A stretch of DNA of 26,184 nucleotides from a virus (Duplodnaviria; Caudoviricetes), in IMG/VR virus record IMGVR_UViG_3300042549_002286, positions 1-26,184 of that record; one strand, written 5' to 3'. The notes beneath the pieces were generated by a model. That model searched no databases. It was not told where the DNA came from and saw only the letters and a list, made by a program, of their open reading frames with translations. Positions 3,823 to 24,553 of this stretch are shown in pieces. The position numbers and the translations under genes were made by a program. Every line of letters begins with the position of its first letter. Position 1 is the first letter of the stretch.

Positions 3823-5586
3823 TTATATATTTTTAATGACAGTCCAGTCATTATCATATATGGAAACGCCATCTTCTGTCACTGAGAATGACGAATCATC
3901 TGAAACTAACGATGCTTTTTCAATATATAGGTTATAGTGATCTAAGGCATTTGCTGAGTCAAACTGCCCAGGATAAATAGATATGTTTTGATATAAGGCT
4001 GAAGGGCTTCCAGATGAGGTATAGTTGAAAGTAATATCTCCACTAATTTCAGATGTGTAGACTATTACAACATGATGTAATTCTCCTACCTCAAATAGAC
4101 CAGATACGTTAGTCTGAGATGTCTTGCTTACCCCGTTTACATATATTGCTGAAATGTTTGTTTTGCTAATTACCCCGCTTGAGTTCCAAGAAAACTCTGA
4201 TGCTGCTCCAGCTCCAGAAGCGCTTGAGGCTAATCTGCCCACAGTTAAAGCGACGGGAGTATAGAAAAACTCTAGAGTTTTAATTAAACTATTAGTGTTT
4301 ACTTTAAATCCCGAATTAGTAGCAACTCTAAGACCATTTCTATGATCTCTAGATAAGATAGGGTAATTATTGTTACTCATAGAAATATCATATACTGAGA
4401 CACCTGAAGTTCCTTCGAGTGTGGACATATAGCTACCAGAGGTAGATGAATAAAATCTAAGGTCATTGTAAAATGTTAATAATAAATTAGATAGTTTTGG
4501 AAGATACTTGCTAGCATCAGATGAAGTAAATGTTATCCTTAAATAAAGATTTCTATCTGTGCTAAAACTAGATATACTATACCCTGGAATTACTCCGCCA
4601 TTTGTGCAAGTTGTATAGGTTGTGCCATCTAGACTAGTTTGTATAGATACCCCGTTATCGCCGTCCCACTCTATCTTAGACGAGTCTAGAGTGAATCCTA
4701 GGGGTATTGTGAGGAAGTCATCAAGAACTACCGTCTTAGAGCCTGTGGAGACCGCCAACTCAATTGAGTCATCGTTCTTATTATAATAAAGATCATCAGA
4801 TAAAAAGTATGACCAAGGCTTGTTTGCTGGATAAGCGTATGAATATTGCTTGCTCAATGTATTATCATAAAACTCAAATAGTTCGCCTTGCTCTGGATAT
4901 GAAATTTGAATTGCTGGAAGAGGCTGGATTTCATTGTAGTGGCTTTTAATCTTTTCAGGACTTAAAGAATATCTATAAACAGCTGGAGCATCAATTAAAA
5001 ATGAATCTGATGAGTTTAAGGTTGGCCCAATATTTAGCTGAAATGTTGAGTTTGTAAATCTAAATAAAGATAAATCTTTTGAAACAACCAATTCTCCATC
5101 TACATATAAATACATTGCTGATACTGAATATACAGCTACGAGATGTAGAGACTTTCTTGTATATGGGACAGTATAGTCAATTCTTTCTGTATTTAATTTA
5201 AATACGATATTTCCCTTATCCCAAAAGATTCCGATACCCTGTGTTGAATCCGCCAATAATGGAGTTAGATTGTTTGTTGAGAATCTAGGATGAATCCATG
5301 CTTCTAGTGTAAAATCATTATCTGAGGTATCACTATCTGCTAATCCGCCGCTTGCTGTTGATCCATAATAATCTTTTGAAACGGGAAGAACTAAATATTG
5401 AGTTGTTGTAATCTTTGATGAAGATGTTCCGCCAGGGATTAAAGGTATTAAATTTGTAGTTAAAGATCCAGTATACGTTCCATTATTACCGCACCCAGAA
5501 ATATCTGAGGCGGTAGTCCCAGAGGTTTCATCCAACGGCCAGAAGCCAATCGGATGATCCTGAATTACCTTTAACTGATACGACAT
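3823..5586 (-). CDS. Virion structural protein with N-terminal LamG/concanavalin A-like domain
   Basis: PIGFWPLDETSGTTASDISG.GNNGTY, DFTLEAWI, HLVAVY, LYVDG, IDAPAVYRYSLS..I..HY; second LamG-like remnant at the C-terminus (HHVVIVY). Start moved to ATG 5586 (MSYQLKV) to avoid overlap with the upstream gene. Confidence 0.82.
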   Translation of the reverse strand: MSYQLKVIQDHPIGFWPLDETSGTTASDISGCGNNGTYTGSLTTNLIPLIPGGTSSSKITTTQYLVLPVSKDYYGSTASGGLADSDTSDNDFTLEAWIHPRFSTNNLTPLLADSTQGIGIFWDKGNIVFKLNTERIDYTVPYTRKSLHLVAVYSVSAMYLYVDGELVVSKDLSLFRFTNSTFQLNIGPTLNSSDSFLIDAPAVYRYSLSPEKIKSHYNEIQPLPAIQISYPEQGELFEFYDNTLSKQYSYAYPANKPWSYFLSDDLYYNKNDDSIELAVSTGSKTVVLDDFLTIPLGFTLDSSKIEWDGDNGVSIQTSLDGTTYTTCTNGGVIPGYSISSFSTDRNLYLRITFTSSDASKYLPKLSNLLLTFYNDLRFYSSTSGSYMSTLEGTSGVSVYDISMSNNNYPILSRDHRNGLRVATNSGFKVNTNSLIKTLEFFYTPVALTVGRLASSASGAGAASEFSWNSSGVISKTNISAIYVNGVSKTSQTNVSGLFEVGELHHVVIVYTSEISGDITFNYTSSGSPSALYQNISIYPGQFDSANALDHYNLYIEKASLVSDDSSFSVTEDGVSIYDNDWTVIKNI

Positions 5587-5592
5587 TCTTTT

Positions 5593-5600
5593 ATTATACC
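5593..5600 (-). promoter_or_regulatory. Possible -10 box for a leaderless LamG transcript
   Basis: GGTATAAT-6 nt-ATG(5586); no convincing -35; overlaps the upstream stop codon. Confidence 0.4.
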
Positions 5601-5797
5601 CTACCCCATTGTATATAGTTCCATCCACGCTCATGTGCGTAGTAAATAAACACTTTAACTACAGTTTCCCAAAATGCAATCGTCACAGAAAGAGAAGCAT
5701 TTTGTGTTATTACATAGGCAACGGCAACTGATGATAGGGTGCCCCAAATTCTATAGCTAAGGGCTTTTGCAAACGATCTGGATTTAGTTACTTTCAT
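5594..5797 (-). CDS. DUF2061-like small membrane protein
   Basis: RS..KA.SYR..GT.....AY..T......IA..E...K...YY.HER.W..I.WG signature; two hydrophobic segments; GGAG 8 nt before ATG 5797. Confidence 0.8.
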   Translation of the reverse strand: MKVTKSRSFAKALSYRIWGTLSSVAVAYVITQNASLSVTIAFWETVVKVFIYYAHERGWNYIQWGRV

Positions 5798-5886
5798 GAA
5801 GGCCACTCCATATTATTGGGCTTGGTAATCCAGCCCCAAAACTTAGATGCCCATTTCTTTACGTTTTTGCGTAGCCGATATAGCAT
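5794..5886 (-). CDS. Possible 30-aa overlapping peptide MLYRLRKNVKKWASKFWGWITKPNNMEWPS
   Basis: Hand-translated; starts inside the cysC 3' end and its TGA overlaps the DUF2061 ATG (ATGA). Confidence 0.3.
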   Translation of the reverse strand: MLYRLRKNVKKWASKFWGWITKPNNMEWPS

Positions 5887-6601
5887 GAATCTCTGCCCCC
5901 AAATCTACTTGCTCAATCTTATATCCGACATCTCTGCCATATACAATGTTAGTAATGTTAGGCAATCTTAATACTAATGCCCCATCCATAAATTCGTCTT
6001 TGGCTATATATTCTTTTACCTGATCGAACTTAAGAGGATCTTTCTCACTTGTGTTATATGTATTACGGACTCCAAGAAGAACTTGATCGGTTCTCTTTCC
6101 CGCCTCTTTATATAATGCGTGATGTCCTTCATGCCATGGTTGATATCTCCCAAGCATTAATGTTGTTGGGGCAGACCAATCATGAAGATCAAACTCTTCA
6201 ATAATAACAGAAGCTTTATCATTTGGATCTAAGTTGTGATTTAAGAAAGACCAATCATATTCGGTTGGCACCTCAAACATCTTATTTGTATCCTCAAATC
6301 TTCCCTCTGCCAATGTGTCCATAAAGATTAAAACATCTGGTTTGCCAAATGCTGCACGAGTTAGGTTTGTAGGACAAATGAAATCTACAATTACTGTATG
6401 TCCTTGTCCATCTAGCATTCGTGCCATTTCGCCTAAACGACGAGCATGCTCAATTCTATCTTCAATAGTAAATCCTAGATCAGAGTTAATTGTTGCACGA
6501 ACATAATCTGCATTTAAATGAATTGCATTGATTCGTTCTTTAAGGGCGGTAGCCAAAGTTGTCTTCCCGCTTCCAGGTAGACCTATAATTTGTATAATCA
6601 T
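5843..6601 (-). CDS. cysC: Adenylylsulfate (APS) kinase fused to HxGH nucleotidyltransferase; candidate bifunctional PAPS synthase
   Basis: N-terminus: GLPGSGKTT P-loop, LNAD.VR..INSDLGF..EDR.E..RR.GE.A, VIVDFICP, FEVP (CysC pattern). C-terminus: LGRYQPWHEGH, YGRD, ISATQKR (HxGH/cytidylyltransferase-like superfamily). Confidence 0.85.
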   Translation of the reverse strand: MIIQIIGLPGSGKTTLATALKERINAIHLNADYVRATINSDLGFTIEDRIEHARRLGEMARMLDGQGHTVIVDFICPTNLTRAAFGKPDVLIFMDTLAEGRFEDTNKMFEVPTEYDWSFLNHNLDPNDKASVIIEEFDLHDWSAPTTLMLGRYQPWHEGHHALYKEAGKRTDQVLLGVRNTYNTSEKDPLKFDQVKEYIAKDEFMDGALVLRLPNITNIVYGRDVGYKIEQVDLGAEIHAISATQKRKEMGI

Positions 6602-6602
6602 T

Positions 6603-7445
6603 TTAGCCTATTATTTCGTTATAAATTGCTGTAGCTTTTTGAATTATTTCCGCTACATCTGTATCAGATAAATCTACCTGAAATAAATCTCTTTCTTCTG
6701 ATGGCAGGTTCCCTGCCCAATTTTCAGCAAGCATCAATGCCTTTACTTCTTCAAGGTCAAATGAGGTTGGCTTTATATCAATTTCCGCTGAGACTTTTGC
6801 TAACGTTATTTCTAGGTTTGTTGTTAGTTCATCAAAAGTAATTACTGTAACTTTATTCTTGTATTCTTTAAGAATTTTAAACCAGTTAAGATTTTTCTGT
6901 GCCAAGCTTAATAAATCTGTTTTGTCTGGTGATTGATTATATAGCTCACACCAACTTCTAATTGAATCTGACGGATTTCTTATTACAATGACTACAGAAT
7001 TAAAAATTTCTGGACCAAGGATAAAGCTTTCTTTTGTATGCATATCTGTATATCCAACTTTTCTATAAACTGTTGGGAAAGCAGCATTCATCACATACGC
7101 ACAAAATATCGTTCCGCTTCTTGGAAAACCATCAATTAATAATGACGCATTATTTAATGGAACATCTTCATCCATCTGAGATGTAAGCCAAGAATTTGCT
7201 TGGTATACAGACATAAAAATATTTTTTTCAGGATCATAAATATATCCTTCTCCCGCAAAATTTCCTCTAAATGAGTTATTATAAGAAGTTTGTATCCAAT
7301 TAGTTTCTTGTCCAAATAGGGATTTGCAATAATTTATTCCAACCAGTTCATCTTCTCCGCCTAATCCATCGGATAATTTATCATTATCTAATGCAATAAC
7401 TCTTATCACACGATTATTATTATCTAGTTCTGCAAAATGTGCCAT
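6603..7445 (-). CDS. Fusion of 'MAHFAELD' fibre-partner domain and P-loop sulfotransferase domain
   Basis: Residues 1-80 match paralogs at 10668 and 17285 (MAHFAE.D.NN.V...W..TSYN...R.N.A..G..YD...F). Then LIDGFPRSGT (5'-PSB loop) and IVIRNPSDSIRS (3'-PB motif), plus FDELT. Confidence 0.8.
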   Translation of the reverse strand: MAHFAELDNNNRVIRVIALDNDKLSDGLGGEDELVGINYCKSLFGQETNWIQTSYNNSFRGNFAGEGYIYDPEKNIFMSVYQANSWLTSQMDEDVPLNNASLLIDGFPRSGTIFCAYVMNAAFPTVYRKVGYTDMHTKESFILGPEIFNSVVIVIRNPSDSIRSWCELYNQSPDKTDLLSLAQKNLNWFKILKEYKNKVTVITFDELTTNLEITLAKVSAEIDIKPTSFDLEEVKALMLAENWAGNLPSEERDLFQVDLSDTDVAEIIQKATAIYNEIIG

Positions 7446-8881
7446 TATAGGACCACCCTAACTATTACTATTCCTGAGCCGCCAGCACGTTTTGCGCCGC
7501 CGCCGCCACCTGTATTTATCGTTCCAGCAACAGCCGTTGAGCCTGCTGAAGCAATTACTGTGTCACCAGTTCCTCCACCACCAAGACCCCCTGCGCCGCC
7601 AGATGCTGGTGTAGACCCACCTCCACCACAACATGCTCCTCCGCCGCCTGAATAATATGTGCTAGTCCCAGTTATGGTTGAAGTAGCTCCAATTCCTCCT
7701 GAGCCAGGATTATTTGCAGTTCCATTTCCACCAACTGCTCCAGCGCCTCCGCCGCCACCTCCTGCATTTTTTACTCCTCCTACATAAGACACTGCTCCAC
7801 CTCCCGCATTTCCTTGTCCTGAAGTTGCGGATCCACCAGAAGATGATCCAGCGTTATAACCTCCTCCTGCACCACCACCTGAACCACCAGATACTCCATT
7901 AATTTTTGAATTGTCTCCACCTCCATAAGTCCCTGCGGCACCGCCACCTGATGCTGTAATTGTTGGTGAAAATGCAATGCTGCTATTTCCTCCATTTGTT
8001 CCATATCCTGGAGCACCAGTTCCGCCAGCAAATATGGCTCCACCAGAACCTACTGTGACAACATATGTCCCAGCAGTTACTGAATTTTTTGTGCCTGCTA
8101 AAAAACCGCCAGCGCCGCCGCCTCCTATTGCACCAGTTGTGTCGTTCCAATCAGCACTTGGCCTACCTCCACCAGGACCTCCACCTGCAACAATTAAATA
8201 CTCAATGTTAACTGTAGAATTTACTATAAGAGACCCAGTTCCAGTAAATGTTTGAGACATATATGTTGTTGGACCACTTGTATAAATACTTTGTGTCCCA
8301 CCAGATATTGGCATATTAACATTTGTAGAAGATACAGCCTCTACGCCTAATCCATATACACCATTAGCATCTTTACCAGATAAAAGAGCAGTTGCTGGAG
8401 ATCCATGAGTTAATCCTGCAAGCGTTACAGATGTTTTTGGAGAAGTTGTTGTTGCTAAAGATACTGATGTTCCATCACGATAATAAGCAATAGTGTCAGA
8501 TGATCCAGATGGATTTGTCCATGCAATGGATCCTACTAGACCAACACCTAAAGTTATTGATGCTCCTGTTGGAGCCGCCATCATTGTATATGAACCAAGT
8601 CTGATATTAATATTTGCTGGGTATGTCATTCCTGCTGGAATAACAATTTTATTAGATGTTGCTGGAACTGTAATGTATCCCTTACCGCCACGAATTGTTC
8701 CTGTAAACCTATATCCTGTTGATGTTCCAAGACCTAATGTAAATGATGATTGTGAAGTATCAGTTGTAATTTCATATAGCCCCGCCGCTAAAGGAGTTGA
8801 TAAAGTATATGTTCCTGCTGCAGTTGCTGGAAATGTTTGTGAAGCTGCATCTCCAAAAAGAAGCGAGTAATTAATTGGCAT
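7445..8881 (-). CDS. Glycine-rich virion fibre/adhesin-like protein
   Basis: FTGTG, EYLIVAGGG, VTVGSGG, NTGGGGG, GGSGIVIVR domain pattern. Start moved to ATG 8881 (MPINYS), giving a TAATG overlap. Confidence 0.8.
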   Translation of the reverse strand: MPINYSLLFGDAASQTFPATAAGTYTLSTPLAAGLYEITTDTSQSSFTLGLGTSTGYRFTGTIRGGKGYITVPATSNKIVIPAGMTYPANINIRLGSYTMMAAPTGASITLGVGLVGSIAWTNPSGSSDTIAYYRDGTSVSLATTTSPKTSVTLAGLTHGSPATALLSGKDANGVYGLGVEAVSSTNVNMPISGGTQSIYTSGPTTYMSQTFTGTGSLIVNSTVNIEYLIVAGGGPGGGRPSADWNDTTGAIGGGGAGGFLAGTKNSVTAGTYVVTVGSGGAIFAGGTGAPGYGTNGGNSSIAFSPTITASGGGAAGTYGGGDNSKINGVSGGSGGGAGGGYNAGSSSGGSATSGQGNAGGGAVSYVGGVKNAGGGGGGAGAVGGNGTANNPGSGGIGATSTITGTSTYYSGGGGACCGGGGSTPASGGAGGLGGGGTGDTVIASAGSTAVAGTINTGGGGGAKRAGGSGIVIVRVVL

Positions 8882-9498
8882 TATCCTAATCTCCATCCAT
8901 ATGTTGAGCCAGTATAAATTAAACTAGCTCCTACACCATTTACGTCTAATATTGCGTCTTGAACGCTACCGTTAATTTTACCACTATTTGAGTTAATTGT
9001 AATGTTATATGTTGCTGCCGTTCCTGTTCCATCAAATACCTGAATTTCATCGCCTAATGTAGGGGAGGCTGGAAGGGTCAAAGTTCTAGCGGCTGTAGTA
9101 TCTACAAAATATTTATTATTAGCAGCCAAAGTTACATTTGAAGATACAGCAGTTGATGCTGGTCCTGTAACAATTGTTACGCTTCCGCCCAAAGAAACGG
9201 CGGAACCATTAACAGTAATACTTGAATTAGTTAAAGATTCATTACCTATATTAGTAAGAGTATTAGATGCGCCAGATATAGTTTTATTGGTTAATGTTTC
9301 TGTTCCCGCCAAAGTTGCAAAGTTGGCATCAGATAATGCCGTATTAAATTGGGCGGTAGTTCCAGTAAAAGTATTACTGGCAAGATCGATTGTTTTATTG
9401 GTTAATGTCTGAGTTCCATTAATTGTAAGGGCATTAGGTAAAGCAGCAGCAACATCTTCCCATGCTGTTCCATTCCATACTTTAATTAGTTTAGCCAT
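8881..9498 (-). CDS. Adaptor-like structural protein with C-terminal T4 gp9/gp10-like domain
   Basis: TLTNKTI repeats; [30 protein letters not shown]...KING...YTGSTYGW C-terminus shared with 12762 and 15806 genes. Confidence 0.75.
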
Positions 9499-10661
9499 TA
9501 GAAAGTTATGCTCCCTGTCGCTGTAAATTGATAAATTGTATATCCACCACTGGTTGTAATTGTTGGCGAACCTACAGTTGTAGCAGCTGGAATAACATCA
9601 GAACATCTAATGATAACAATCCCTGAACCGCCAGATGTTCCTGGTGCTGCTAAATAACGACCACCACCGCCACCGCCAGTATTTGTTGTTCCATTTGTAG
9701 CGTTAGTAGCAGAGCCGCCTATTCCTCCTCCACCATTACCTCCTGCTGCTGTTACACCTGTGCCAGCTGCTGCGCCGCCTCCGCCGCCTCCACCTGCACG
9801 AAATACTGCTGAGCCTGTAATAGAAGATGAAACTCCAACTCCACCTGCTCCAGGTGTTGTGCCACTTGTGCTTCCACCAACTCCGCCTGCTCCGCCGCCG
9901 CCTGCTGCTGCGTTAATAGTTGTAGTGTTTCCACCAGAATATCCTTGTCCCGTTGTGCCAGATCCACCAGTTTTAGCCGCATTGTATCCGCCTGCACCTC
10001 CACCTGATCCACCATTATTTCCGTTGGCAGAATAAAGACCTCCGCCGCCGCCGCCAATAGCAGTAATTGTAGTTAAACCAGTTCCAGCTATAGAAGAGTT
10101 GCTTCCATTATTTCCAGTAGCATTTCCTACTGCAGTGCCTCCTGCACCAACAGTTATTGTGTAAGTAGTTCCAGTTATCATAGAAATTGATAATTCTGCA
10201 GCTGCTCCACCTCCTGATGATTCTCCACTTACGGAGCTTATGTAGCCACCTGCACCAGCACCAGCTGTTGAGGCATCTCCACCTGTATAGCTACCACCGC
10301 CTCCGCCGCCAGCGATGACTAAATATTGTGCAATAACTGGCGCCCTAGATCCAGCTATAATCCATCCAGATGAATTTTTTTGATACAAATTATCTAACGA
10401 AGTATCATAGTATAAATCGCCTACCGAGCCAGCTGGTCTATTTGCCGTTGTTCCACGGCCAAAGTGTCCATTTGCTACTGTAGCATGTGTTGAAATTGCA
10501 GATGATAAAGATGTAGCTGTTGCAAGAACTGATGTGTCTGTAATTCCATGAACAGATGTTGTAGCAGAATTATGTGAAGAAATTGCGGAGGCAACTTCAG
10601 CATCAGTTGCTGCATCTGTTGATCCACTAAATAGATTTGCTATATCTCTAATTCTGCTCAT
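9498..10661 (-). CDS. Glycine-rich virion protein, MSRxRDxAN N-terminal class
   Basis: N-terminus paralogous to 16288 and 17729; GTTANRP..GDLYYDT motif; YLVIAGGGGGG...GGSGIVIIR...YQFTATGSITF. Confidence 0.82.
   Translation of the reverse strand: MSRIRDIANLFSGSTDAATDAEVASAISSHNSATTSVHGITDTSVLATATSLSSAISTHATVANGHFGRGTTANRPAGSVGDLYYDTSLDNLYQKNSSGWIIAGSRAPVIAQYLVIAGGGGGGSYTGGDASTAGAGAGGYISSVSGESSGGGAAAELSISMITGTTYTITVGAGGTAVGNATGNNGSNSSIAGTGLTTITAIGGGGGGLYSANGNNGGSGGGAGGYNAAKTGGSGTTGQGYSGGNTTTINAAAGGGGAGGVGGSTSGTTPGAGGVGVSSSITGSAVFRAGGGGGGGAAAGTGVTAAGGNGGGGIGGSATNATNGTTNTGGGGGGRYLAAPGTSGGSGIVIIRCSDVIPAATTVGSPTITTSGGYTIYQFTATGSITF
10433..10475. repeat. Third, more diverged copy of the ANGH.GRGTTANRP DNA repeat
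   Basis: ctggtctatttgccgttgttccacggcca...ccatttgc, shared with 17129-17184 and 18972-19027. Confidence 0.7.
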
Positions 10662-10667
10662 AATATT

Positions 10668-11048
10668 TTACGCTTCCTCTAAAGGATGCAGTCCCCACTC
10701 CTGCAATTCTTCATTCCAAATATATACTCTATCATCATTTGGGCGTTCTACTGGAGCAACCCATGTGCATGTTTCTTCATTTAAAGTCCATGACGCAAAT
10801 GGTTTTGGCCATATAAAAGCATCTCTTTCTTGATCATACGTTCCACCAATAACTGCATAATTTTTTCTAAGCGGGGTCCCGCCTAAAATATGAGTATTAG
10901 CATGAGTATTATAAGAAGTTTTAATCCATACTCCACCTAAGTTATCTACTAAATCTTGATAACCTTCATCACCATTTGGGTGATCATTGTCTCCTACAAC
11001 AATATTTATAACAATATTATTTTCATCTATCTGTGCAAAATGTGCCAT
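10668..11048 (-). CDS. 'MAHFA' family small fibre-partner protein (putative chaperone or cap)
   Basis: 126 aa; closely similar to the 17285 gene; PKPFASW.L.E.TC.W.AP...P and Trp-rich C-terminus; follows a Gly-rich gene. Confidence 0.78.
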   Translation of the reverse strand: MAHFAQIDENNIVINIVVGDNDHPNGDEGYQDLVDNLGGVWIKTSYNTHANTHILGGTPLRKNYAVIGGTYDQERDAFIWPKPFASWTLNEETCTWVAPVERPNDDRVYIWNEELQEWGLHPLEEA

Positions 11049-11052
11049 TTTA

Positions 11053-12762
11053 TTACCTCACGCTCATAAGGATAACGCCTGATGCGCCACCATGTGTGGT
11101 GCTATCGCTCTGTGCACCTGCTCCACTATTTGCTGGAGCAGTATCAGATCCGCCAAGACCTTGACCTACATTTGTATTATATCCATGTCCTCTTCCGCCC
11201 CAAGCATAGTAAGTTGATTGCCCAAAGAACTGCATTCCATCTCCGCCACGGCCTTTAACTCCAGCAGATCCAGCACCGCCACCAGCACCACACCCAGTAT
11301 TATTTGCAGAATTTGGCGAAACCCCACCACCATCACCGCCGACATTTCCGAAGTGCGTAGTTCCTCCAGTTCCTTTTGTAGATGTTCCTCCATATCCAGC
11401 TCCCCCGCCTCCTCCGCCAGATCCTCCAGATATTCCTGCGCCTGTAGCTCCTTGTTGCCTACATCCTCCGCCTCCATAACCAGTAATTGTTGTTGATCCA
11501 ACTGTTAAAGATGTATTGCCTCCAGTGCCACCATCAGTGCTTTGGCTTGGATACGGATTAGAACCTCCTCCACCAATAGAGTATGTCAAAGTTTGTCCTG
11601 GAGTTACGGAGAACTGCCTATAAGCAACTCCTCCTGAACCTCCACCGCCACCGAAGCCATAAGAGTTTCCGCCGCCGCCTCCAATTGCATATGCTTCAAT
11701 TACTGAAGCTCCTGCTGGAACCGTATATGATGAGCCAGAAGTTAATGTTACTAATTGAGAAGGTTTTACGGATGTTGTTGTTGATGTTTCTGATACTCCA
11801 GACGCATTTGTTCCTGTTAATGTAAACGTGTAAGATGTATTATTGACAAATGCCCCAGTCACAGATATTGGTGAGGTTGTTCCACTATATGTTAATGAAA
11901 TTGATGGAGAAGATGTTACTGTAACTGCAGTTAAAGCGCTTCCTCCAGTATTTGCTGTAAATGGAATAGATACTACTGTTGGGCTTGTTATGCTTGGAGT
12001 TCCAACAGTGATCTGTGGCTTAGTTGCGGCTGTTACTGAACTATATGCAGTTGATGCCGCAGAATCTCCATTTGCATTAACTGCTTTAACATTAAAAGTA
12101 TATGCTGTTCCAGCTGTTAGTCCAGATACTGTCAATGGACTAGTTGTTTGTGATGGAGAGAATGCAGTATATGTAGTTCCATCTGTTGAATATTTATAAT
12201 TTGTAATTGTTTTACCGCCAGTATGACCAGCAGTAAATGCTAATGTTACTGAAGGAGATGATCCAAAATTTGTTCCCGTAACAATTGCCGAAGCTCCTGG
12301 TGCAGGACTTTGAGGAACTGTTGTTGCAGTAATTTGATTTGAATTTCCGCTTGCATTAGAAGTTCCAAAATTATTAGTTGAAGTTCCAGAAAAAGTATAT
12401 GTTGAGCCTGGAGTCAATCCAGTCACAGTAATTGGAGAAGATGTTCCAGTTGCAAAAACTGAATCTGAAGATGCATTAATTCTGTAAGAAGAAGAAAGCC
12501 CTCCTCCAGTTCCTGTAGTAAATGCAACTGTTGCTGCTGCTCCAGTTGAAGAATAGGAACGTCCTGTTCCTATATCTGTAGCCGTTCCAATTGAAATAAC
12601 TGCTGGTGTTGCACTATTTGCTACCCAACCAGCAGAAGTATAAATTTCTGTTACTCCAGTTTCACCATTATGGTAGGTTCGTCCAATTTCTGGGTCTGAT
12701 GGTCTATTTGCAGTATCCCCAAATGGTGTTCCGCCTAAACTGCTTGCCTTTATATCTGCCAT
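11053..12762 (-). CDS. Virion protein with about 3 FN3-like domains plus glycine-rich C-terminal domain
   Basis: Three SP(I/L).V.G....T.YTF.....N..G.S units; AIGGGGG...GGASGVILM; N-terminal PFG.TA.RP..P..G..Y.NG..GV.E shared with the 14694 gene. Confidence 0.82.
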   Translation of the reverse strand: MADIKASSLGGTPFGDTANRPSDPEIGRTYHNGETGVTEIYTSAGWVANSATPAVISIGTATDIGTGRSYSSTGAAATVAFTTGTGGGLSSSYRINASSDSVFATGTSSPITVTGLTPGSTYTFSGTSTNNFGTSNASGNSNQITATTVPQSPAPGASAIVTGTNFGSSPSVTLAFTAGHTGGKTITNYKYSTDGTTYTAFSPSQTTSPLTVSGLTAGTAYTFNVKAVNANGDSAASTAYSSVTAATKPQITVGTPSITSPTVVSIPFTANTGGSALTAVTVTSSPSISLTYSGTTSPISVTGAFVNNTSYTFTLTGTNASGVSETSTTTSVKPSQLVTLTSGSSYTVPAGASVIEAYAIGGGGGNSYGFGGGGGSGGVAYRQFSVTPGQTLTYSIGGGGSNPYPSQSTDGGTGGNTSLTVGSTTITGYGGGGCRQQGATGAGISGGSGGGGGGAGYGGTSTKGTGGTTHFGNVGGDGGGVSPNSANNTGCGAGGGAGSAGVKGRGGDGMQFFGQSTYYAWGGRGHGYNTNVGQGLGGSDTAPANSGAGAQSDSTTHGGASGVILMSVR

Positions 12763-13583
12763 TATCCAACCTTCCAGCCATATGTAGAACCAGTATAAAC
12801 TAAAGAAGCCCAGTATCCATTGGCGTCAATTATAAAGTTTCCAGCATTGCCATTAATTAATTTAGAATTTCTTGCTATAGTAATATTATACGTTGCAGCA
12901 TTTCCTGATGCATCAAATATGTCAATTTGATCATTTCTTGTGGGATTTGTGGGAAGAGTCAATGTTAATGCAGATGCAGATGTTACGTAATATCTGAGTC
13001 CAGCTGCAAGATTTGTATTTGAAGAAATTGAAGAATAAGAGGTAGGATTATAGGAATTAAGATTAGTTATTGTTACTACTTCAACAATATCATTTACCGC
13101 CGCTGCCGCCCCTAATGTAACTGTATTTGAATTAGAAGTTGTATAGTCTGTAGTTCTAAGCAAAAGCATTCCGTTAAAAAACACCTGCTCATATCCCTCT
13201 ATAAATGAAACTGATGTAGTAAATGCTGTTTGTCCAGCGGTTGCTGTAAAAGACTGTCTACGGATAATATTAGGGTCAAATGAGTCTGCTGTTGAATCTG
13301 ATTCCACCCAAATTTGTCCAACAACTGGAGATGCTGGTGCATCTGCAGAATATGTGACGGGGGTTACAAGAGATGTAAGAGTTGTAGGAGCATATGTAGT
13401 TCCAGATGATGAATATAGAATTTGTCCTGAAGAAGGGGATGTTGTTGTTCCAGTTCCGCCATATTGTGTAGCTAAATTTGTGTGGGAATCAACAGTGTGT
13501 CCTTCAGCAATAAGGACTCCAGATGAATTAGTAAGCCCAGCTATTGTGAGCTTATTTTTAACCTTAAAATTTTTATCTGACAA
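12762..13583 (-). CDS. Multi-module adaptor protein (FKVKN N-terminus; VFFNG..DY module; gp9/gp10-like C-terminus)
   Basis: TTG start supported by homology of MSDKNFKVKN with the 20825 and 15806 genes; ends in YTGSTYGW; TAATG-coupled to the next gene. Confidence 0.78.
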   Translation of the reverse strand: MSDKNFKVKNKLTIAGLTNSSGVLIAEGHTVDSHTNLATQYGGTGTTTSPSSGQILYSSSGTTYAPTTLTSLVTPVTYSADAPASPVVGQIWVESDSTADSFDPNIIRRQSFTATAGQTAFTTSVSFIEGYEQVFFNGMLLLRTTDYTTSNSNTVTLGAAAAVNDIVEVVTITNLNSYNPTSYSSISSNTNLAAGLRYYVTSASALTLTLPTNPTRNDQIDIFDASGNAATYNITIARNSKLINGNAGNFIIDANGYWASLVYTGSTYGWKVG

Positions 13584-13600
13584 TCTGGTTCACATATCCC

Positions 13601-13652
13601 CTAATTGATTATACCTAATTATAGCATAGGCTAATTTATGACATTATAGGCT
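13601..13652 (-). promoter_or_regulatory. Internal promoter region with three TATAAT boxes
   Basis: TATAAT at 13648-43, 13623-18 (TGCTATAAT, extended -10) and 13613-08, in the largest intergenic gap of the fibre region; CTAATT repeated at 13601, 13615 and 13631. Confidence 0.55.
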
Positions 13653-13666
13653 TATACAGCCAACAC

Positions 13667-14374
13667 TTAGACTGTCCATTCTGCCGAATAATATAGGTCC
13701 ATGTCATTTGGCATTAAATCTTCAATTATTGATTTTTCTTTTTTAGTTAATGAATTATATATTAATTTAGAATTTGGATTAATTATGTTATGTATAGTTG
13801 TTTCAAAATATGGATCGCTATCTTTAATTCCAAAATGGTTACGCATAATAGCCAAGCTTTTTTTTGTTATATCATGCGACATTTCTTCTGTCTTAAATAA
13901 ATAATCAACTGATTTAATTCTTTGTTTTGCTAAAAGAAAATCTTCATCTGATACCTTATTTTTTAACTCATGTTCATCTATATGAATAGCATAAGAATCA
14001 CCGCTATAAGCAATAAACTTTGTCTGATAATCAATAATTCCTTTATTTGGATTTTCAATAAGGAAATCAAGCATCTTTCTTTTTTCCGACTCTATATCAA
14101 CTGTTTTTGAATCAAAAGAATTAAAATATATATGCTGATAATGACTGATTGTTCTAGCAACAGGCTCTCTTAATGTAGAAAAACTTAAAATATTTTTATT
14201 ATCTAAAGGCTTAAATGATAAATGACCATATCCATGTAAGACATCACCATATTGTTTACCGTTTATTATAAGTTCTTGTTCAAGAACCCTAACGGTATTA
14301 GCATAAAAAAATCTACCACTAGTTTTTGGTATATGAAAAAACCAAATAGGATCTATGGCCTTGTTGCTATCCAT
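13667..14374 (-). CDS. Sulfotransferase (Sulfotransfer_2 / carbohydrate-sulfotransferase-like)
   Basis: FFHIPKTSG (5'-PSB), LREPVARTISHY (3'-PB), DYQ, C-terminal I.....D..LY. Start ATG 14374 preferred over TTG 14401; AT-rich. Confidence 0.82.
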   Translation of the reverse strand: MDSNKAIDPIWFFHIPKTSGRFFYANTVRVLEQELIINGKQYGDVLHGYGHLSFKPLDNKNILSFSTLREPVARTISHYQHIYFNSFDSKTVDIESEKRKMLDFLIENPNKGIIDYQTKFIAYSGDSYAIHIDEHELKNKVSDEDFLLAKQRIKSVDYLFKTEEMSHDITKKSLAIMRNHFGIKDSDPYFETTIHNIINPNSKLIYNSLTKKEKSIIEDLMPNDMDLYYSAEWTV

Positions 14375-14697
14375 TCTTGCGTATCCTCGTCCCATGCCCA
14401 AACTGCTCCATGGCTTCCATACAATAGCTCTGGGTGTAACTTAGGTGCAACCCATAAATATTTTGTTTCATCCCAAAGCCAAGATGGGTAGGGCTTTGGT
14501 GGCATAAATCTTTCACCATTAAATACATTACCAATTCCGCAAACAGAAGTGTCATCTGGTATTTCCATAGCAGTTAAAGTATCATTATTAAATATAACTT
14601 TTTGTGCATCTAAAAATGGTGTTATATCTTGTGGAGTTTCTTCAAACTCAATGATATTTTCAACAACGTTATCTGAATTAATTATTGCGTATTTCAT
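14353..14697 (-). CDS. Diverged 'MAHFA'-related fibre-partner protein
   Basis: MKYAII..DNVV.NII N-terminus; F.PPKPYPSW.WDE....W.AP...P and W.WDE..QEW match the 10668/17285 C-termini; ATGA-coupled to a Gly-rich gene. Confidence 0.75.
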   Translation of the reverse strand: MKYAIINSDNVVENIIEFEETPQDITPFLDAQKVIFNNDTLTAMEIPDDTSVCGIGNVFNGERFMPPKPYPSWLWDETKYLWVAPKLHPELLYGSHGAVWAWDEDTQEWIATRP

Positions 14698-15806
14698 CCT
14701 ATAGCCGCCGCAATTCCAGTGTTTCCACTTCTACCAGATTGTGCCCAAGTAGCACCACCTGCACCACCGCCACGAACAATACCATTTTCATTTGTTGCTG
14801 CACTTGCTCCTCCTCCAGTGCCAAAAAGACCGCCCCAAGTTATACCGTTAGCACCAGAATAAGAACCAGCACCACCATGAGGAATTCTTTGATCAGTTCC
14901 TAATCCAGCAGCTACTCCTAATTGTCCAGTGCCTCTAGTTCCTGCTGTTCCTTGAAAACCATTGCTTCCATAATAACCACCACGACCATCGCCACCAGTT
15001 CCATTAGCATCGCCTTGGCTACCTCCACCAGAACCGCCATTACCAGTTCCTCCACCACGACCACCGTCGCCACCAGCAGCAGAACAAAGAGTTGTTCCGC
15101 TTCTAACAAAACTAGTTGTTCCGCCAGCATCGCCAGCTGAACCACCACCTGCGCCAAGTGTGACTACTACAGAATTTCCAGAAGTTAAAGATACAGAAGT
15201 GGGCGTCATGCGGCCAGAACCACCACCAACTGCAGCATTACCTGCACTACCAGATCCACCTCCACCTCCTACTGCAACCAATAAATATGTTCCAGTAGCA
15301 GGAACTGTCCAAGTAGTGCTGCTAGTAAAAACTGTAACTGCTGGAGCTTTAAATGATGTTGCTGGAGATGCTGCAGATGATGCGCTTCCAGATCTTGCTG
15401 CATAAGTAAAATTATATGTTGTTCCAGAAGTTAAACCAGTAATAGTTGCAGTTAATGAACTTGTTGTTGCTGTAGATACAACTGTTCCATCAGTAGTTGC
15501 CGCATAAATGATATAGCTATCAATAGCAGCAATATTTCCAGCTGGAGAAACTGCAGTCAATGTTACTTTTGCTGTAGTTGTTACAGTTGCATTAGTGTAT
15601 GCTGTAGGATTTATTTCTACTGTAGGGGCAACTGTAGGTGCTGGAACTGTTTGTGATGCAACAGAAATAAATGAACCAGAAGCATTAGCTACTTCAAGGA
15701 CTCCTGCTGTTCCATTAAAATATGGTTGTCCAACAGCTGGGGATGCTGGTCTTCCTGCAGTATTTCCAAAAGGTATACCTATAATAGATGACTTTCTAAT
15801 TGGCAT
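14694..15806 (-). CDS. Virion protein with FN3-like domain and glycine-rich domain
   Basis: TITGLTSGTTYNF; FTSSTTWTVP, AVGGGGG, GNTGIA; TAATG-coupled to the upstream adaptor. Confidence 0.8.
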   Translation of the reverse strand: MPIRKSSIIGIPFGNTAGRPASPAVGQPYFNGTAGVLEVANASGSFISVASQTVPAPTVAPTVEINPTAYTNATVTTTAKVTLTAVSPAGNIAAIDSYIIYAATTDGTVVSTATTSSLTATITGLTSGTTYNFTYAARSGSASSAASPATSFKAPAVTVFTSSTTWTVPATGTYLLVAVGGGGGSGSAGNAAVGGGSGRMTPTSVSLTSGNSVVVTLGAGGGSAGDAGGTTSFVRSGTTLCSAAGGDGGRGGGTGNGGSGGGSQGDANGTGGDGRGGYYGSNGFQGTAGTRGTGQLGVAAGLGTDQRIPHGGAGSYSGANGITWGGLFGTGGGASAATNENGIVRGGGAGGATWAQSGRSGNTGIAAAIG

Positions 15807-16288
15807 TAATCAAACCTCCATCCGTATGTTGAACCTGTATAAATAAATGATGAACTAGAACCACTGATATCTATTATAGCATCATCTGAAACACCGTTTA
15901 TTTTATTACTATTTCTTGATACTGTAATATTATACGTTGCAGCAGATCCTGATGCATCAAATACATAGATTTCATCTCCAACAGAAGGGCTCGCTGGAAG
16001 AGTAAGGGTTCTAGCTGCAGTTGTATCTACAAAATATTTATTAAATGACGATAGGGTTATATTGGAAGATACTGAAGTAGATGGCATTGCTACAAATCCA
16101 GAAGAAACTGTTGTCCAAGAAGTATTCGTTCCATCAGTTTTTAATACCTTATTAGCATTATCTGTTTGTAATGGAAGCAAAGCATTTAATGTATTATTAG
16201 CTGTTGTTTGTCCTGTTCCGCCCATAGACACAGGAATAGGTGTTGCTACATCAAGACCATTTTTAACTTTAAAATCTTTATTAGCCAT
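15806..16288 (-). CDS. Adaptor protein (FKVKNGL N-terminus; gp9/gp10-like C-terminus)
   Basis: N-half shared with the 20825 gene (GGTGQTTA.N..NALLPLQT); C-half shared with the 8881 gene. Confidence 0.78.
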   Translation of the reverse strand: MANKDFKVKNGLDVATPIPVSMGGTGQTTANNTLNALLPLQTDNANKVLKTDGTNTSWTTVSSGFVAMPSTSVSSNITLSSFNKYFVDTTAARTLTLPASPSVGDEIYVFDASGSAATYNITVSRNSNKINGVSDDAIIDISGSSSSFIYTGSTYGWRFD

Positions 16289-17284: not shown

Positions 17285-17668
17285 TTACTCTCCAGGAATT
17301 ATTACTTCTTGCCAGTTTAAATCTTCTTCAACCCACATAAACATTTTGCCTTCTACTACAGGCACAGGTGTTGGGGCATTCCAAATACATGTTGTTTCAT
17401 CTAATACCCATGAAGCAAATGGTTTTGGTGCAATAAATGCATCTCTAGATTCATCATATGTGAATCCGATTCCTGCGTAATTTTTTCTAAATGGAGTTCC
17501 GCCAAGTGCGTGAACATTACCCATTGTGTTATATGAGGTCTTTTTCCAAGTCCCGCCCAAACCTAGGTCGGTAGCAAGGAATTCTTGTCCTCTATGATCT
17601 TCTTCATCTGCAACTACTAATACACGAGTTACAATATTATTTTCATCAATCTCGGCCCAATGTGCCAT
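17285..17668 (-). CDS. 'MAHFA' family small fibre-partner protein
   Basis: 127 aa; strong AAGGAGG RBS; paralog of the 10668 gene. Confidence 0.8.
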   Translation of the reverse strand: MAHWAEIDENNIVTRVLVVADEEDHRGQEFLATDLGLGGTWKKTSYNTMGNVHALGGTPFRKNYAGIGFTYDESRDAFIAPKPFASWVLDETTCIWNAPTPVPVVEGKMFMWVEEDLNWQEVIIPGE

Positions 17669-21232: not shown

Positions 21233-24091
21233 TTAAAGCTTTACTTTGCTAAATTTAACTGCTACGTTTGTAGTTGCTGCATCAGTTGCTGTTACTTGTA
21301 ATACTGCATTTGTTGAAGATACTGCTGCTGATACGACTACACCTGAAATTGTTCCGCCAGTTTCTGTAATTGCAAATTCTGTCATATCTACATTTGTGCC
21401 ATCAGTTTGAACAATTACTTTAGATGTTCTAGCCTTTGAACCCTGCTTTAAAGATACCATATATTCAATTGATGTAAACGCTGACAATGCTGTGGTATCT
21501 ACAGTTTCTACTGTATTTCCAGTAACAGTATCTGTTCCAGTTTCAATTGGAACTACTAGAGTTGCCCATGAAGCCGCTGATCCATTTGTGGTTAAATACT
21601 TTCCTGAATTATTTGTTTGAGTTGGAAGTGCATCTACTGTTGCCCAATATGAGGTAGTCCCATCATTTGTAAGATACTTGCCTGTGGTCGCTACACCTGG
21701 AGAACGAAAAATTCCATCGTCTACGCCCGCAACTGTTCCAGATACAAAAGTTAGATTTTCCCATAAAATATTAGGTCCATCGTTTATACAGGCTTCCGTA
21801 ACAATGAGTTCACAAAACTCAACAGAAGGGTCTGCCGATGCTGCAAGAATTACAGTTGAGCCAACAGGATAGGCAGCGTTTATTGCGTCTGCGTCTCCGT
21901 TGGTCGGATTGCTGCTCAGATTAATCTGCACAGTTACTATGGTAGGACCATCATATATATCTATGTAACCAATTGCATCAGATAAAGAACTTATCAAAGC
22001 GGTGTTTGTTACTGCCGCTGTTGATGTCGTGACTGCAGGAACTTCGCTAATGGCGTCCCAAGAAGCTGTTGTTCCATTTGTAGTTAAGTATTCTCCAGAG
22101 TTTCCAGTTTGATCTGGAAGACTTACTGGTGCTGCCGCCCACTCAACTCCATTAGTTGCTGCTGAGTTTGCTGTGAGCAAATATCCGTTTGTTCCAGCTG
22201 CTAATTTTGCTGGTGTATTATCGGCGGAAGCAACTAAAATATCTCCCTTAGTATCAAATAAGGATTCATCTACCTTACCATCTAATTGTGTTTGAATTGC
22301 TGAAGTTACGCCATCTACATAATTTAATTCAGTTGTAGAAAGAGTTGCTCCATCTAAAATATTAAGTTCTGCTGCTGTTGAGGTTACCCCGTCAAGGATA
22401 TTTAATTCGGCGGCTGTAGAAGTAACTCCATCTAGGATATTTAACTCTGCTGTGCTTGAAGTAATTCCATCTAAAACATTTAATTCTGTTGCGGTTGCTG
22501 TAACTGCTACATCCTCGTTAATTTTTGGACTTGTTAAAGTTTTATTTGTTAAAGTTTGAGCGGTAGAAAGGTCTACTGTTGCTGCTGTATTTATAGAAAC
22601 TTCATTTCCACTTACAGTTATACCTGTGCCAGCAGTAATTGTTCCTGATCCTGAGAACTGGTATACGTCAATATTATCTGTTCCAACTACAAATGTTGTT
22701 GGGTCTGCAACTACTTGAATCCATCCTGTTCCTGCACTTGTTCCTGCTTGGACATATATATATGCTCCTGGAATTTCTGAAGCTTCGTCACAAAAACTAC
22801 AACGAGTTAAAACATATGGCGTTGATACAGATCCCATATTTGAAACAAAATATCTACCGTTATGAGCCTTATTAGTTTGATTTTTTACTAAAATACCTTT
22901 TCCAACTGCCCAGCCTGTTGCTCCACCTGCTTCTGCAGGAAATACTCCGTTTGTATTGTGTGTAAGAGTTGCTCCTACACCTGCTGTGCCATTATTATAT
23001 GTGGCATCAATGTTTGCTGTTGTTGCTCCAAGAACTTGTGGCTTAGCAACAATTCCTGACGCTGTATTGTCAACATATTGCTTTGTTGCTGCTTGAAGAG
23101 CAGATGCAGGATCTGCAGCAAGAGTAACTGTGCCAGTAAATGTTGGATTATTTATTGGGGCCTTATCATTAATCTGTGTTTGAATAGCTGAAGTTACTCC
23201 ATTTAAGTATCCAATTTCAGTGTCTGAAACATCTGCTACTCTGGCTTGAATTGTAGTTGTATCTACAGAAATAGCACCAGTTGTATCGTTATACGATAAT
23301 CCTGTGCCTACGGCTTCTCCAACTGCATCTTGTGCATTTTCGTTTGAATATGTATTTGCTCCAACAAATGTAAACTTATTATTATCATCATCATATGTAA
23401 TAGTTATATTTGTATGGGTTCCCGCCGCAATTGCTGTAGCAATAGCATCTTGTGCTCTTTCATCTGTAAAATATTTATTAGTTGATCCTTCAGAAAGCCC
23501 ATCTGTGCTTGAAGGAATATTAGAAGTTAAAGCAACTGTTCCGCCTGCGTCTGGGATAGTAATTGTTCTATCTGCAGTTGGATCTGTTACCTGAATAGTT
23601 GTTTCAAAGTCATTTGCTGTTGCGCCCTCAAAAGTAATTGCTGTCGGAACGCTAATATTTCCTGTAAATGTGGCACCAGATAATGCTGCTACATTTTCTG
23701 CCAAAGCTACTGTTCCAGTAGCATTTGGAAATGTAATAGTTCTATCTGCTGTAGGGTCTGTTACTGTTAAAGTAGTTTGATAATCATCTTCTGTAGCACC
23801 TTCAAATATAATACTATCATTTGGAATTAAAAGATTCTGTAGACCATTTAGGCCAGCTACTCCACTTTCAGCACCAATGTCTCCAACCTCAACATATCCG
23901 TTAAGTGTTGTATTTAAATTTGATGGGACGACGTTTGCGTAGTTAGTAATCTGAGTCCATGTGCTTGACCCATTTCCAACCTTCATCTTTAGTGTATCTG
24001 TCTCGATACCAACTTCACCTTCACGCAATGTTGGATTATTTGATGTCCAATTTGCTGCGGTGTCTCTACGTAATTGAATTCTAACTGCCAT
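21233..24091 (-). CDS. Long fibre protein with Mtd N-terminal-like domain and COG5301-like domain
   Basis: MAVRIQLRRDTAANWTSNNPTL.EGE.G.ETDT.K.K.G.G...W; duplicated FEGAT.D...T..VTDPTADRTIT.P; ILVKNQT...NG.Y; ELNILDG repeats. Start moved to ATG 24091. Confidence 0.82.
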   Translation of the reverse strand: MAVRIQLRRDTAANWTSNNPTLREGEVGIETDTLKMKVGNGSSTWTQITNYANVVPSNLNTTLNGYVEVGDIGAESGVAGLNGLQNLLIPNDSIIFEGATEDDYQTTLTVTDPTADRTITFPNATGTVALAENVAALSGATFTGNISVPTAITFEGATANDFETTIQVTDPTADRTITIPDAGGTVALTSNIPSSTDGLSEGSTNKYFTDERAQDAIATAIAAGTHTNITITYDDDNNKFTFVGANTYSNENAQDAVGEAVGTGLSYNDTTGAISVDTTTIQARVADVSDTEIGYLNGVTSAIQTQINDKAPINNPTFTGTVTLAADPASALQAATKQYVDNTASGIVAKPQVLGATTANIDATYNNGTAGVGATLTHNTNGVFPAEAGGATGWAVGKGILVKNQTNKAHNGRYFVSNMGSVSTPYVLTRCSFCDEASEIPGAYIYVQAGTSAGTGWIQVVADPTTFVVGTDNIDVYQFSGSGTITAGTGITVSGNEVSINTAATVDLSTAQTLTNKTLTSPKINEDVAVTATATELNVLDGITSSTAELNILDGVTSTAAELNILDGVTSTAAELNILDGATLSTTELNYVDGVTSAIQTQLDGKVDESLFDTKGDILVASADNTPAKLAAGTNGYLLTANSAATNGVEWAAAPVSLPDQTGNSGEYLTTNGTTASWDAISEVPAVTTSTAAVTNTALISSLSDAIGYIDIYDGPTIVTVQINLSSNPTNGDADAINAAYPVGSTVILAASADPSVEFCELIVTEACINDGPNILWENLTFVSGTVAGVDDGIFRSPGVATTGKYLTNDGTTSYWATVDALPTQTNNSGKYLTTNGSAASWATLVVPIETGTDTVTGNTVETVDTTALSAFTSIEYMVSLKQGSKARTSKVIVQTDGTNVDMTEFAITETGGTISGVVVSAAVSSTNAVLQVTATDAATTNVAVKFSKVKL
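22307..22501 (-). repeat. Five tandem 13-aa (39-bp) repeats T....ELN.LDG
   Basis: TATATELNVLDGI/TSSTAELNILDGV/TSTAAELNILDGV/TSTAAELNILDGA/TLSTTELNYVDGV; synonymously diverged DNA. Confidence 0.88.
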
Positions 24092-24551: not shown

Positions 24552-24553
24552 GA

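Follow-up and report, generated by a model that had tools for sequence, protein, structure and literature searches.

The stretch of DNA analysed here (the window) comprises 26,184 nucleotides, positions 1 to 26,184 of the IMG/VR virus record IMGVR_UViG_3300042549_002286, a linear fragment, about 23% complete, of the genome of a tailed phage (Caudoviricetes). It carries a locus of the dedicated tailoring type, real and coherent, in which a supply of 3'-phosphoadenosine 5'-phosphosulfate (PAPS) is combined with sulfotransferases. At its centre is a gene, cysC in its first half, for a protein that joins a trimmed adenosine 5'-phosphosulfate (APS) kinase to a small nucleotidyltransferase domain with an HxGH motif. 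It is very probable that this cysC fusion supplies PAPS for sulfation and not for sulfate assimilation, and likely, as predicted from gene context, that the HxGH domain is an ATP sulfurylase; this small sulfurylase is probably the firmest novelty of the locus. More tentative, and held at slightly less than an even chance, is the prediction that late in infection the PAPS made by the fusion and the two sulfotransferases of the window, ST1 and ST2, serve to sulfate Gly-rich appendage proteins or their glycans. The four genes concerned are the following:

5594..5797, minus strand: small membrane protein of the DUF2061 family, the regular companion of the cysC fusion (PF09834, E 5e-16)
5843..6601, minus strand: 252-aa fusion of a trimmed APS kinase (residues ~1-140) and an HxGH nucleotidyltransferase (~141-252), predicted minimal PAPS synthase
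6603..7445, minus strand: ST1, MAHFA domain (phrog_7759 over residues 1-90) followed by a sulfotransferase-fold domain
13667..14374, minus strand: ST2, sulfotransferase of the Sulfotransfer_2 (carbohydrate) type, by Atlas features, a homologue matching PF03567 and a family profile

These open reading frames (ORFs), their common strand and their tight linkage had been described, with the same assignments, in a first-pass annotation, which overlooked the HxGH half as the likely supplier of the sulfurylase step. The description is confirmed, the genes overlapping or having gaps of 1-83 nt between them.

The predicted donor enzyme

The kinase half of the fusion matches PF01583 over residues 2-84 (E 1e-16, 61.7 bits against a cut-off of 21.1), and phrog_10255 spans the whole length of the protein (E 4e-63). 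With the equivalog TIGR00455 it reaches 63 bits, the cut-off being 138.7, and profile positions 20-106 of 184 are matched; this half is thus a trimmed APS kinase variant that falls below the full-length equivalog cut-off. An AlphaFold model built from 69 sequences (pLDDT 96) has APS kinases as its leading structure matches (Z 16-18), the kinase superposing on 4rfv with Z 18.2 and a root-mean-square deviation (rmsd) of 1.7 over 127 residues, and the next family, gluconate kinase, reaching Z 15.2. Both structure searches with the whole fusion were filled by matches to this half. An alignment of 1x6v across both halves was discarded, because at rmsd 16 it provides no evidence of kinship with Sat.

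The second half, in which a weak PF01467 match covers residues 149-187, belongs to the HxGH nucleotidyltransferase superfamily: the HxGH motif, a GRD-type loop and a terminal SxT/R motif are all conserved, with H157, G159, H160, Y221-G226, S242, T244 and R247 kept in at least 75% of the 69 sequences (32-85% identity). The domain is 91-97% identical in the best 119 of its 3,560 relatives at E 0.001, and the family forms 89 half-identity clusters at E 1e-30. HxGH is found before or after the kinase and also joined to full-length canonical CysC, and in large phages kinase and HxGH occur as two adjacent separate ORFs (G024:C1:40152-40918; G026:C1:28422-29185). The gene family is present in 19 of 50,697 records of cultured phages, at full length in 12. 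A gene for a product of 90-100 aa follows the cysC fusion in nine loci (e.g. L002:4334-4633), and in phage RSL1 (L173:7989-8684) a tail that resembles this product by eye stands in place of HxGH.

DUF2061 accompanies the fusion closely, being encoded in the flanks of 77 of 80 cysC-fusion loci (the best 80 of 589 viral loci, which came from roughly half of the collection). In 2 of 80 bacterial loci, from metagenome-assembled genomes of Caldisericaceae (L182:5749-6519) and Aquificota (L239:5788-6516), it is itself joined to canonical CysC; the scan of the genome collection with query P0168 was dominated by ordinary CysC, the HxGH domain occurring in 2 of 80 loci.

What the fusion supplies can be judged from 14 viral records at least 90% complete, seven with the cysC fusion and seven without. 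One to three sulfotransferases are encoded in each of the seven fusion-bearing genomes and in one of the seven others (G002), an association whose p value of 0.005 is overstated because the genomes are related and the sulfotransferase profiles were built from the same loci. Since every near-complete fusion genome has a sulfotransferase, the fusion reads as a PAPS supply for sulfation rather than for assimilation, which bears out the earlier proposal that cysC is here no booster of host metabolism. The absence of cysH and sulfite reductase genes, reported at the same time, was confirmed for the 28 window proteins scanned (in a record about 23% complete), and it extends to 86 scanned proteins of phage neighbourhoods. 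In the cultured phage Sano, a sulfotransferase-like gene (PF17784, E 4e-4, below the cut-off) lies two genes upstream of the fusion; none was found among the 8 neighbours scanned in phage DLP6.

Gene context of the HxGH domain

In an alphaproteobacterial survey (351 genomes searched, 350 usable counted), the HxGH domain was carried by 8 of the 350. Two of the carriers, the streamlined G364 (L363:269-4645) and G232 (L364:5992-10353), have an operon in the order cysG-cysI-cysH-DUF2061-trimmed cysC-stand-alone HxGH, its products being uroporphyrinogen methyltransferase, sulfite reductase, PAPS reductase, DUF2061, the trimmed kinase and HxGH as a protein of its own. There is no Sat or CysD-like ORF in the stretches of these operons that were read, and neither Sat nor CysD was found in the possibly incomplete genomes G364 and G196. 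The fact that HxGH closes a sulfate-assimilation operon having no other sulfurylase gene makes it likely that the domain is an unrecognised ATP sulfurylase. Elsewhere the fusion keeps company with sulfotransferases, standing directly before a PF13469 sulfotransferase in G196 and near PF13469 and arylsulfotransferase genes in G289.

Several results weigh against this assignment. A profile of 15 HxGH domains run against the PDB places them nearest to NMN adenylyltransferases (NMNAT, E 2e-11), and its 34 matches to E 10 include NMNAT, PPAT and GCT and no Sat; the fusion likewise gives no match at E 0.01 to PF01747, the Sat catalytic domain. G232 has a Sat elsewhere in its genome and G045 has CysD. 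A canonical sulfurylase occurs in 1 of 8 HxGH carriers versus 7 of 20 controls, a difference that in these incomplete genomes is not significant (p 0.37).

WhiB, present in 51 of the 84 loci analysed first, suggests an actinobacterial host, and the likely hosts are Nanopelagicales. According to the parts of PMC12817590 considered here, isolates of this order are without a full assimilatory sulfate pathway, for which reason a phage-borne sulfurylase would be useful. If the HxGH domain is a sulfurylase, ATP sulfurylases would be of three kinds, the fusion would be the smallest PAPS synthase, and a very common freshwater viral "auxiliary metabolic gene" (AMG) of the sulfur-cycle papers would gain a new reading, the class of cysC fusions amounting to about 1,300 IMG/VR stretches.

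The two sulfotransferases

Searches of Pfam, NCBIfam, PHROG and, with single sequences, the PDB returned nothing for the sulfotransferase domain of ST1 or ST2. Their identification from the PAPS-binding loops (GFPRSGT in ST1, HIPKTSG in ST2) nevertheless holds, by fold in the first case and by profiles in the second. A model of ST1 from 13 sequences (pLDDT 81) retrieves sulfotransferases in Foldseek (E 2e-5), and the first 21 rows of the VIA comparison are all of the sulfotransferase fold. The best of them is TPST1 (Z 11.9, rmsd 3.4 over 177), the tyrosylprotein sulfotransferases being ahead of other sulfotransferases by only about 1-2 Z units at 11-13% identity. In 18 homologues (15-40% identity) the sole invariant residues are R109, R156, P158 and S164, which we take to be the PAPS-binding positions (5'-PSB loop and 3'-PB). 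The modelled fold and the conserved residues thus support ST1 as a PAPS-dependent sulfotransferase.

The joining of this domain to MAHFA is genuine, as it recurs in 12 full-length homologues of 275-280 aa; MAHFA is cut where the enzyme begins, its residues 1-90 being without the Trp-rich C-terminal third, and some of the fused versions have altered PAPS loops. The sulfotransferase domain of ST1 used alone as query found no viral locus. The MAHFA-ST1 fusion is present in seven loci (one repeats L001 and two are near-identical), with cysC next to it in four and a GT4 glycosyltransferase in cysC's place in the other three.

As regards ST2, its Atlas features lie at 0.96-0.97 to Sulfotransfer_2 clusters, a homologue 81% identical to it reaches 22.7 bits with PF03567 (cut-off 22; ST2 itself gives no match) and the family profile matches heparan sulfate 6-O-sulfotransferase 5t03 (E 9e-8). 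In the motifs H..K..G and R.P..R..S, the residues H, G, R, P and S are invariant in 16 sequences. On these sequence grounds, placement of ST2 in the carbohydrate-type Sulfotransfer_2 (PF03567) family is supported.

The appendage array

The window corresponds to the head and appendage region of the phage, with every gene on the minus strand. Decoration/fibre genes come first, then a long array made up of adaptor, Gly-rich (PF21722) and MAHFA (phrog_7759) genes, after which LamG is followed by the portal, protease and capsid genes. In the sister contig G004 (portal 100% and cysC 99% identical), tail genes and a tape-measure-sized ORF lie beyond the capsid gene, which leaves the array outside the tail-tube module; because of this position, upstream of portal and capsid, "appendage" is a safer term than "tail fibre". 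The remaining features around the four genes are:

3823..5586, minus strand: LamG protein (PF13385), conserved downstream boundary of the variable slot of tailoring enzymes, found in the same place in portal-anchored loci
7445..8881 (alternative start 8896), minus strand: candidate acceptor, a Gly-rich appendage protein encoded upstream of ST1 (PF21722, E 1e-7; phrog_2295)
8881..9498, minus strand: adaptor-type virion protein (phrog_31104 and tail-protein PHROGs)
9498..10661, minus strand: Gly-rich appendage protein (PF21722, E 2e-10)
10668..11048, minus strand: stand-alone MAHFA with no sulfotransferase behind it (phrog_7759, E 5e-37)
11053..12762, minus strand: FN3 and Gly-rich appendage protein (PF00041, PF21722)
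12762..13583, minus strand: adaptor-type virion protein (phrog_31104)
14353..14697, minus strand: divergent MAHFA protein (phrog_7759, E 5e-11)
14694..15806, minus strand: candidate acceptor, an FN3 and Gly-rich appendage protein encoded upstream of ST2 (PF00041, PF21722)
15806..16288, minus strand: adaptor-type virion protein opening the ST2 triplet (phrog_31104 and tail PHROGs)

The first-pass annotation had seen each sulfotransferase as the end of a triplet of adaptor, Gly-rich and MAHFA genes. This applies to ST2, whose triplet reaches 16288 and not the 14697 given as the limit of the system, and to ST1, in which MAHFA is fused; it fails for a third triplet (12762-13583, 11053-12762, 10668-11048) and for a fourth MAHFA gene (17285-17668), both without a sulfotransferase, so that two of the four MAHFA genes have one behind or fused to them. 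The label "gp9/10-like" for the adaptors found no support in Pfam; their matches are to tail or virion-protein PHROGs. From the Gly-rich gene to ST1 and from ST1 to cysC the gaps are -1 and +1 nt, indicating translational coupling.

At the head of the array (21233-26184), a 958-aa fibre bearing Mtd_N and a head-decoration-like protein (phrog_2647) are Thr/Ser-rich and are also possible acceptors. Neither a tRNA nor a glycosyltransferase gene was found in the window, and its counts of promoters and terminators are no higher than in shuffles. Two freshwater metatranscriptome assemblies contain only pieces of relatives, mostly less than 90% alike, and show neither expression of the window phage nor its habitat.

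MAHFA itself, a possible chaperone of tail-fibre assembly in the manner of Tfa, has no Pfam or PDB sequence match. A Gly-rich gene is present in 72 of 80 MAHFA loci, usually directly upstream, and in four cultured phages MAHFA stands behind tail-fibre genes. Apparent Gly-MAHFA and oxygenase-MAHFA fusions (P0284, P0285, P0290, P0302, P0306, P0336, P0342, P0344) were not counted, since a Gln occurs in them a few residues ahead of an internal start, probably a stop codon that the gene caller read through as Gln. A search for longer MAHFA proteins (best 120 of 597 examined) revealed large extended families of 320-390 aa (P0286-P0403), in which an acidic coiled coil is inserted and Trp-Pro-rich motifs recur at the C-terminus.

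Linkage of the module to appendage genes

The strongest link of the module to fibres is provided by G005, a complete 40.9-kb WhiB phage of an unrelated group with a different capsid. Here a tail fibre (phrog_38058) is followed in a row by Gly/FN3, MAHFA, ST2, the cysC fusion and DUF2061, with identities to the window of 68% for Gly/FN3 (to 14694-15806), 73% for MAHFA, 81% for ST2 and 68% for the cysC fusion; one glycosyltransferase (phrog_34859) is encoded elsewhere in this genome. In the cysC survey, a sulfotransferase is present at all three loci in fibre context versus 23 of the 77 others (Fisher p 0.03, related genomes). Between the window and G004, the Gly tip (61% identical) and the MAHFA-ST1 gene (31%) were exchanged together, which is accounted for by one recombination event.

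The wider survey gives a divided answer, and several of its results weigh against appendages as the acceptor. MAHFA/Gly genes were found at 3 of the 80 cysC-fusion loci, the other 77 lying in a non-structural region, and MAHFA is present in none of the seven near-complete fusion genomes, although two of these carry a short Trp-rich piece resembling its C-terminus; their sulfotransferases sit mostly among oxygenase-type arrays, with one in the slot before LamG. In Sano, too, the fusion and its sulfotransferase-like neighbour lie outside the structural operon. MAHFA-ST1 with its PAPS loop intact also occurs in the complete genome G002, which has no APS kinase. In the 80 portal-anchored loci sampled, of which 37 could be read for at least 5 kb upstream of LamG, these 37 showed Gly-rich genes in 15, MAHFA in six, a sulfotransferase in four and cysC in the flank of none (one contig has cysC further upstream). 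A sulfotransferase was detected at 1 of 80 MAHFA loci, that of the sister phage, a count that is a lower bound because two genes with the motifs, next to the fusion in L119, escaped the profiles. The two Gly-rich proteins upstream of ST1 and ST2 have no acid-flanked tyrosine, and the identities of Gly domains and ST1 show no correlation over six pairs (rho 0.24, p 0.38). The claim that fibres are the target thus retains its support from linkage in two unrelated phage groups, and is weakened by the 77 loci and the seven genomes having no MAHFA/Gly context.

In the explanation preferred here, the pair of cysC fusion and DUF2061 would be a mobile donor cassette serving sulfotransferases elsewhere in most relatives, and its position in a fibre array is a minority arrangement; virion sulfation is plausible, as something other than the general use of the module. 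In sister phages, the slot before LamG holds tandem 2-oxoglutarate (2OG) oxygenases, DUF6065, glycosyltransferases or epimerases, and these varied contents make it a variable tailoring island, with the sulfation module as one of its occupants. Upstream of LamG in L284, L297, L303 and L343 there are tandem series of 5-7 2OG-Fe(II) oxygenases, together with DUF6065, in many cases behind an FN3 protein that carries a Hint/intein-like domain. In L119 (986-3664), which belongs to a different large phage, the fusion stands behind two genes with sulfotransferase-like loops and no Pfam match, 6 kb from a Gly/MAHFA pair. A comparison of Gly domains with (7) and without (37) a sulfotransferase, a small related set, gave Ser, Thr and Tyr contents that do not differ, and lower Phe and acidic residues in those with the enzyme.

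Proposed mechanism and rival explanations

In the proposed pathway, the HxGH domain would make APS from sulfate and ATP, as its context suggests, and the kinase domain, as its modelled fold and its family indicate, would convert it to PAPS. ST1, by its modelled fold, and ST2, by its family profile, both with conserved PAPS-binding residues, would then use this donor, ST1 acting on protein hydroxyls and ST2 on a sugar that would be attached by a glycosyltransferase whose gene lies elsewhere. The weakest step would be the delivery of ST1 to the Gly-rich protein by MAHFA; since MAHFA follows Gly-rich genes in many phage families, it is proposed as their assembly partner. DUF2061 may, at a guess, import sulfate or anchor an enzyme. 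If the acceptor is an appendage, sulfation would stand beside glycosylation among the virion modifications that phages encode, and it could tune charge and receptor binding. A bolder version, possible and rather doubtful, is that of a self-sufficient virion-sulfation module, in which a new sulfurylase class of 110 residues and a trimmed kinase would operate in incapable hosts, a MAHFA-tethered sulfotransferase of the protein type would modify a polyglycine adhesin, and the viral "cysC" AMGs, in their thousands, would be tailoring PAPS synthases.

Sulfation might also be real and its acceptor lie off the virion, either a glycan, lipid or protein of the host envelope (for receptor masking or superinfection exclusion) or a small molecule made by the oxygenase/halogenase arrays, the slot before LamG then being an accessory island of general use, expressed with the late operon. 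Such an acceptor agrees with the location of most cysC fusions and sulfotransferases away from MAHFA/Gly genes, with neighbours that include 2OG oxygenases, Trp halogenase and carbamoyl-, methyl- and glycosyltransferases, with the membrane nature of DUF2061, and with a carbohydrate-type ST2 in a window that encodes no glycosyltransferase. It is nonetheless somewhat unlikely, as it leaves unexplained both the covalent MAHFA-ST1 fusion and the fact that an entire Gly/MAHFA/ST2/cysC block was transferred to a small, unrelated phage, behind its tail fibre, and neither signal nor membrane segments are apparent in the enzyme sequences. We regard as improbable that the sulfotransferase-fold domains on MAHFA are non-catalytic or self-contained virion parts, binding for example sulfated host glycans, with cysC adjacent by descent from an older catalytic module. 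The ST1 domain is indeed swapped between near-identical phages (26% identity where the portal is 100% and cysC 99%), as a receptor-binding part would be, G002 keeps MAHFA-ST1 without the kinase, and the loops are altered in some fused versions; yet the four invariant residues are precisely the PAPS-binding ones, cysC adjoins four of the seven fusion loci, and the host of G002 could supply PAPS.

The remaining possibilities question the donor or the pathway. The fusion could make a PAPS analogue, a phospho- or phosphoramidate donor of the kind associated with Campylobacter Cj1415, the transferases moving another group. The kinship of HxGH to NMN adenylyltransferases and a kinase score far below the TIGR00455 cut-off would fit such chemistry, which the place of HxGH in sulfate-assimilation operons and its fusion to full-length canonical CysC make quite improbable. 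Little probability is likewise given to sulfation of modified DNA bases. It is suggested by phage RSL1 (L173:7989-16348), in which a related kinase without HxGH sits with three TAGT glycosyltransferases, a PF03567 sulfotransferase, HMUDK and a thymidylate-synthase homologue, a candidate cluster for sulfated-sugar DNA hypermodification; against it, no base-modifying genes were found in the window, among the 86 scanned neighbour proteins or among 20 scanned G005 ORFs, and the module has a late structural position. Least probable of all is that cysC boosts host sulfate assimilation, with the sulfotransferases unrelated to it. This is how phage cysC is read in PMC10914622 and bioRxiv 2021.01.05.425418, from whose main texts the word "sulfotransferase" is absent, and two bacteria do have the DUF2061/kinase/HxGH trio in a cysH-cysI operon. 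The scanned phage neighbours, however, include no cysH or sulfite reductase, the fusion co-occurs with sulfotransferases, and the likely hosts, inferred from WhiB in relatives, would be without the full pathway (PMC12817590, in the parts considered). The phage cysC of those surveys probably belongs to this same class of abundant freshwater viral genes.

Comparison with known systems

No description of virion sulfation or of a kinase-HxGH fusion was found in the main texts of the open-access literature searched. Like the known PAPS synthases (human PAPSS1, 1x6v; Aquifex Sat-CysC, 2gks), the phage protein joins an APS kinase to a nucleotidyltransferase of the HxGH superfamily, its domain order being that of PAPSS1, with both orders represented in the fusion family. 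It differs from them in being less than half their size, in having an NMNAT-like second domain of about 110 aa, and in having no PF01747 match, no PUA-like part and no canonical kinase lid segment. Dedicated loci for PAPS and sulfotransferase are known from rhizobia (nodPQ/nodH) and Xanthomonas (raxPQ/raxST), with a sulfurylase of the CysD/CysN type and a lipochitooligosaccharide and a secreted peptide, rather than virion proteins, as acceptors. The phage locus shares with them a PAPS supply of its own linked to a tailoring sulfotransferase, and the best structural matches of ST1 are tyrosylprotein sulfotransferases.

Mycobacteriophages offer another parallel, glycans having been demonstrated by experiment on their capsid and tail-tube proteins (Freeman et al. 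2023, as cited in the portion of PMC12619734 considered here). There, as proposed here from genes alone, enzymes of actinobacterial phages decorate the phages' own virion proteins, with neither sulfate nor a donor-synthesis fusion being involved in that account. The closest precedent is itself a prediction: in the sections of Iyer et al. 2010 (PMC2938197) considered, bacterial operons are proposed to hydroxylate and then sulfate tail-collar or Gly-rich/collagen-like proteins encoded in the same operon, a PAPS synthetase being encoded there as well. As in those cases, one operon holds the PAPS supply, a sulfotransferase and, as candidate substrate, a Gly-rich structural protein, and the 2OG oxygenase arrays carried by sister phages in the same slot recall their beta-hydroxylases; unlike them, the system described here is encoded by a phage, has no oxygenase in the window, draws its PAPS from a 252-aa fusion and has one of its enzymes fused to MAHFA.

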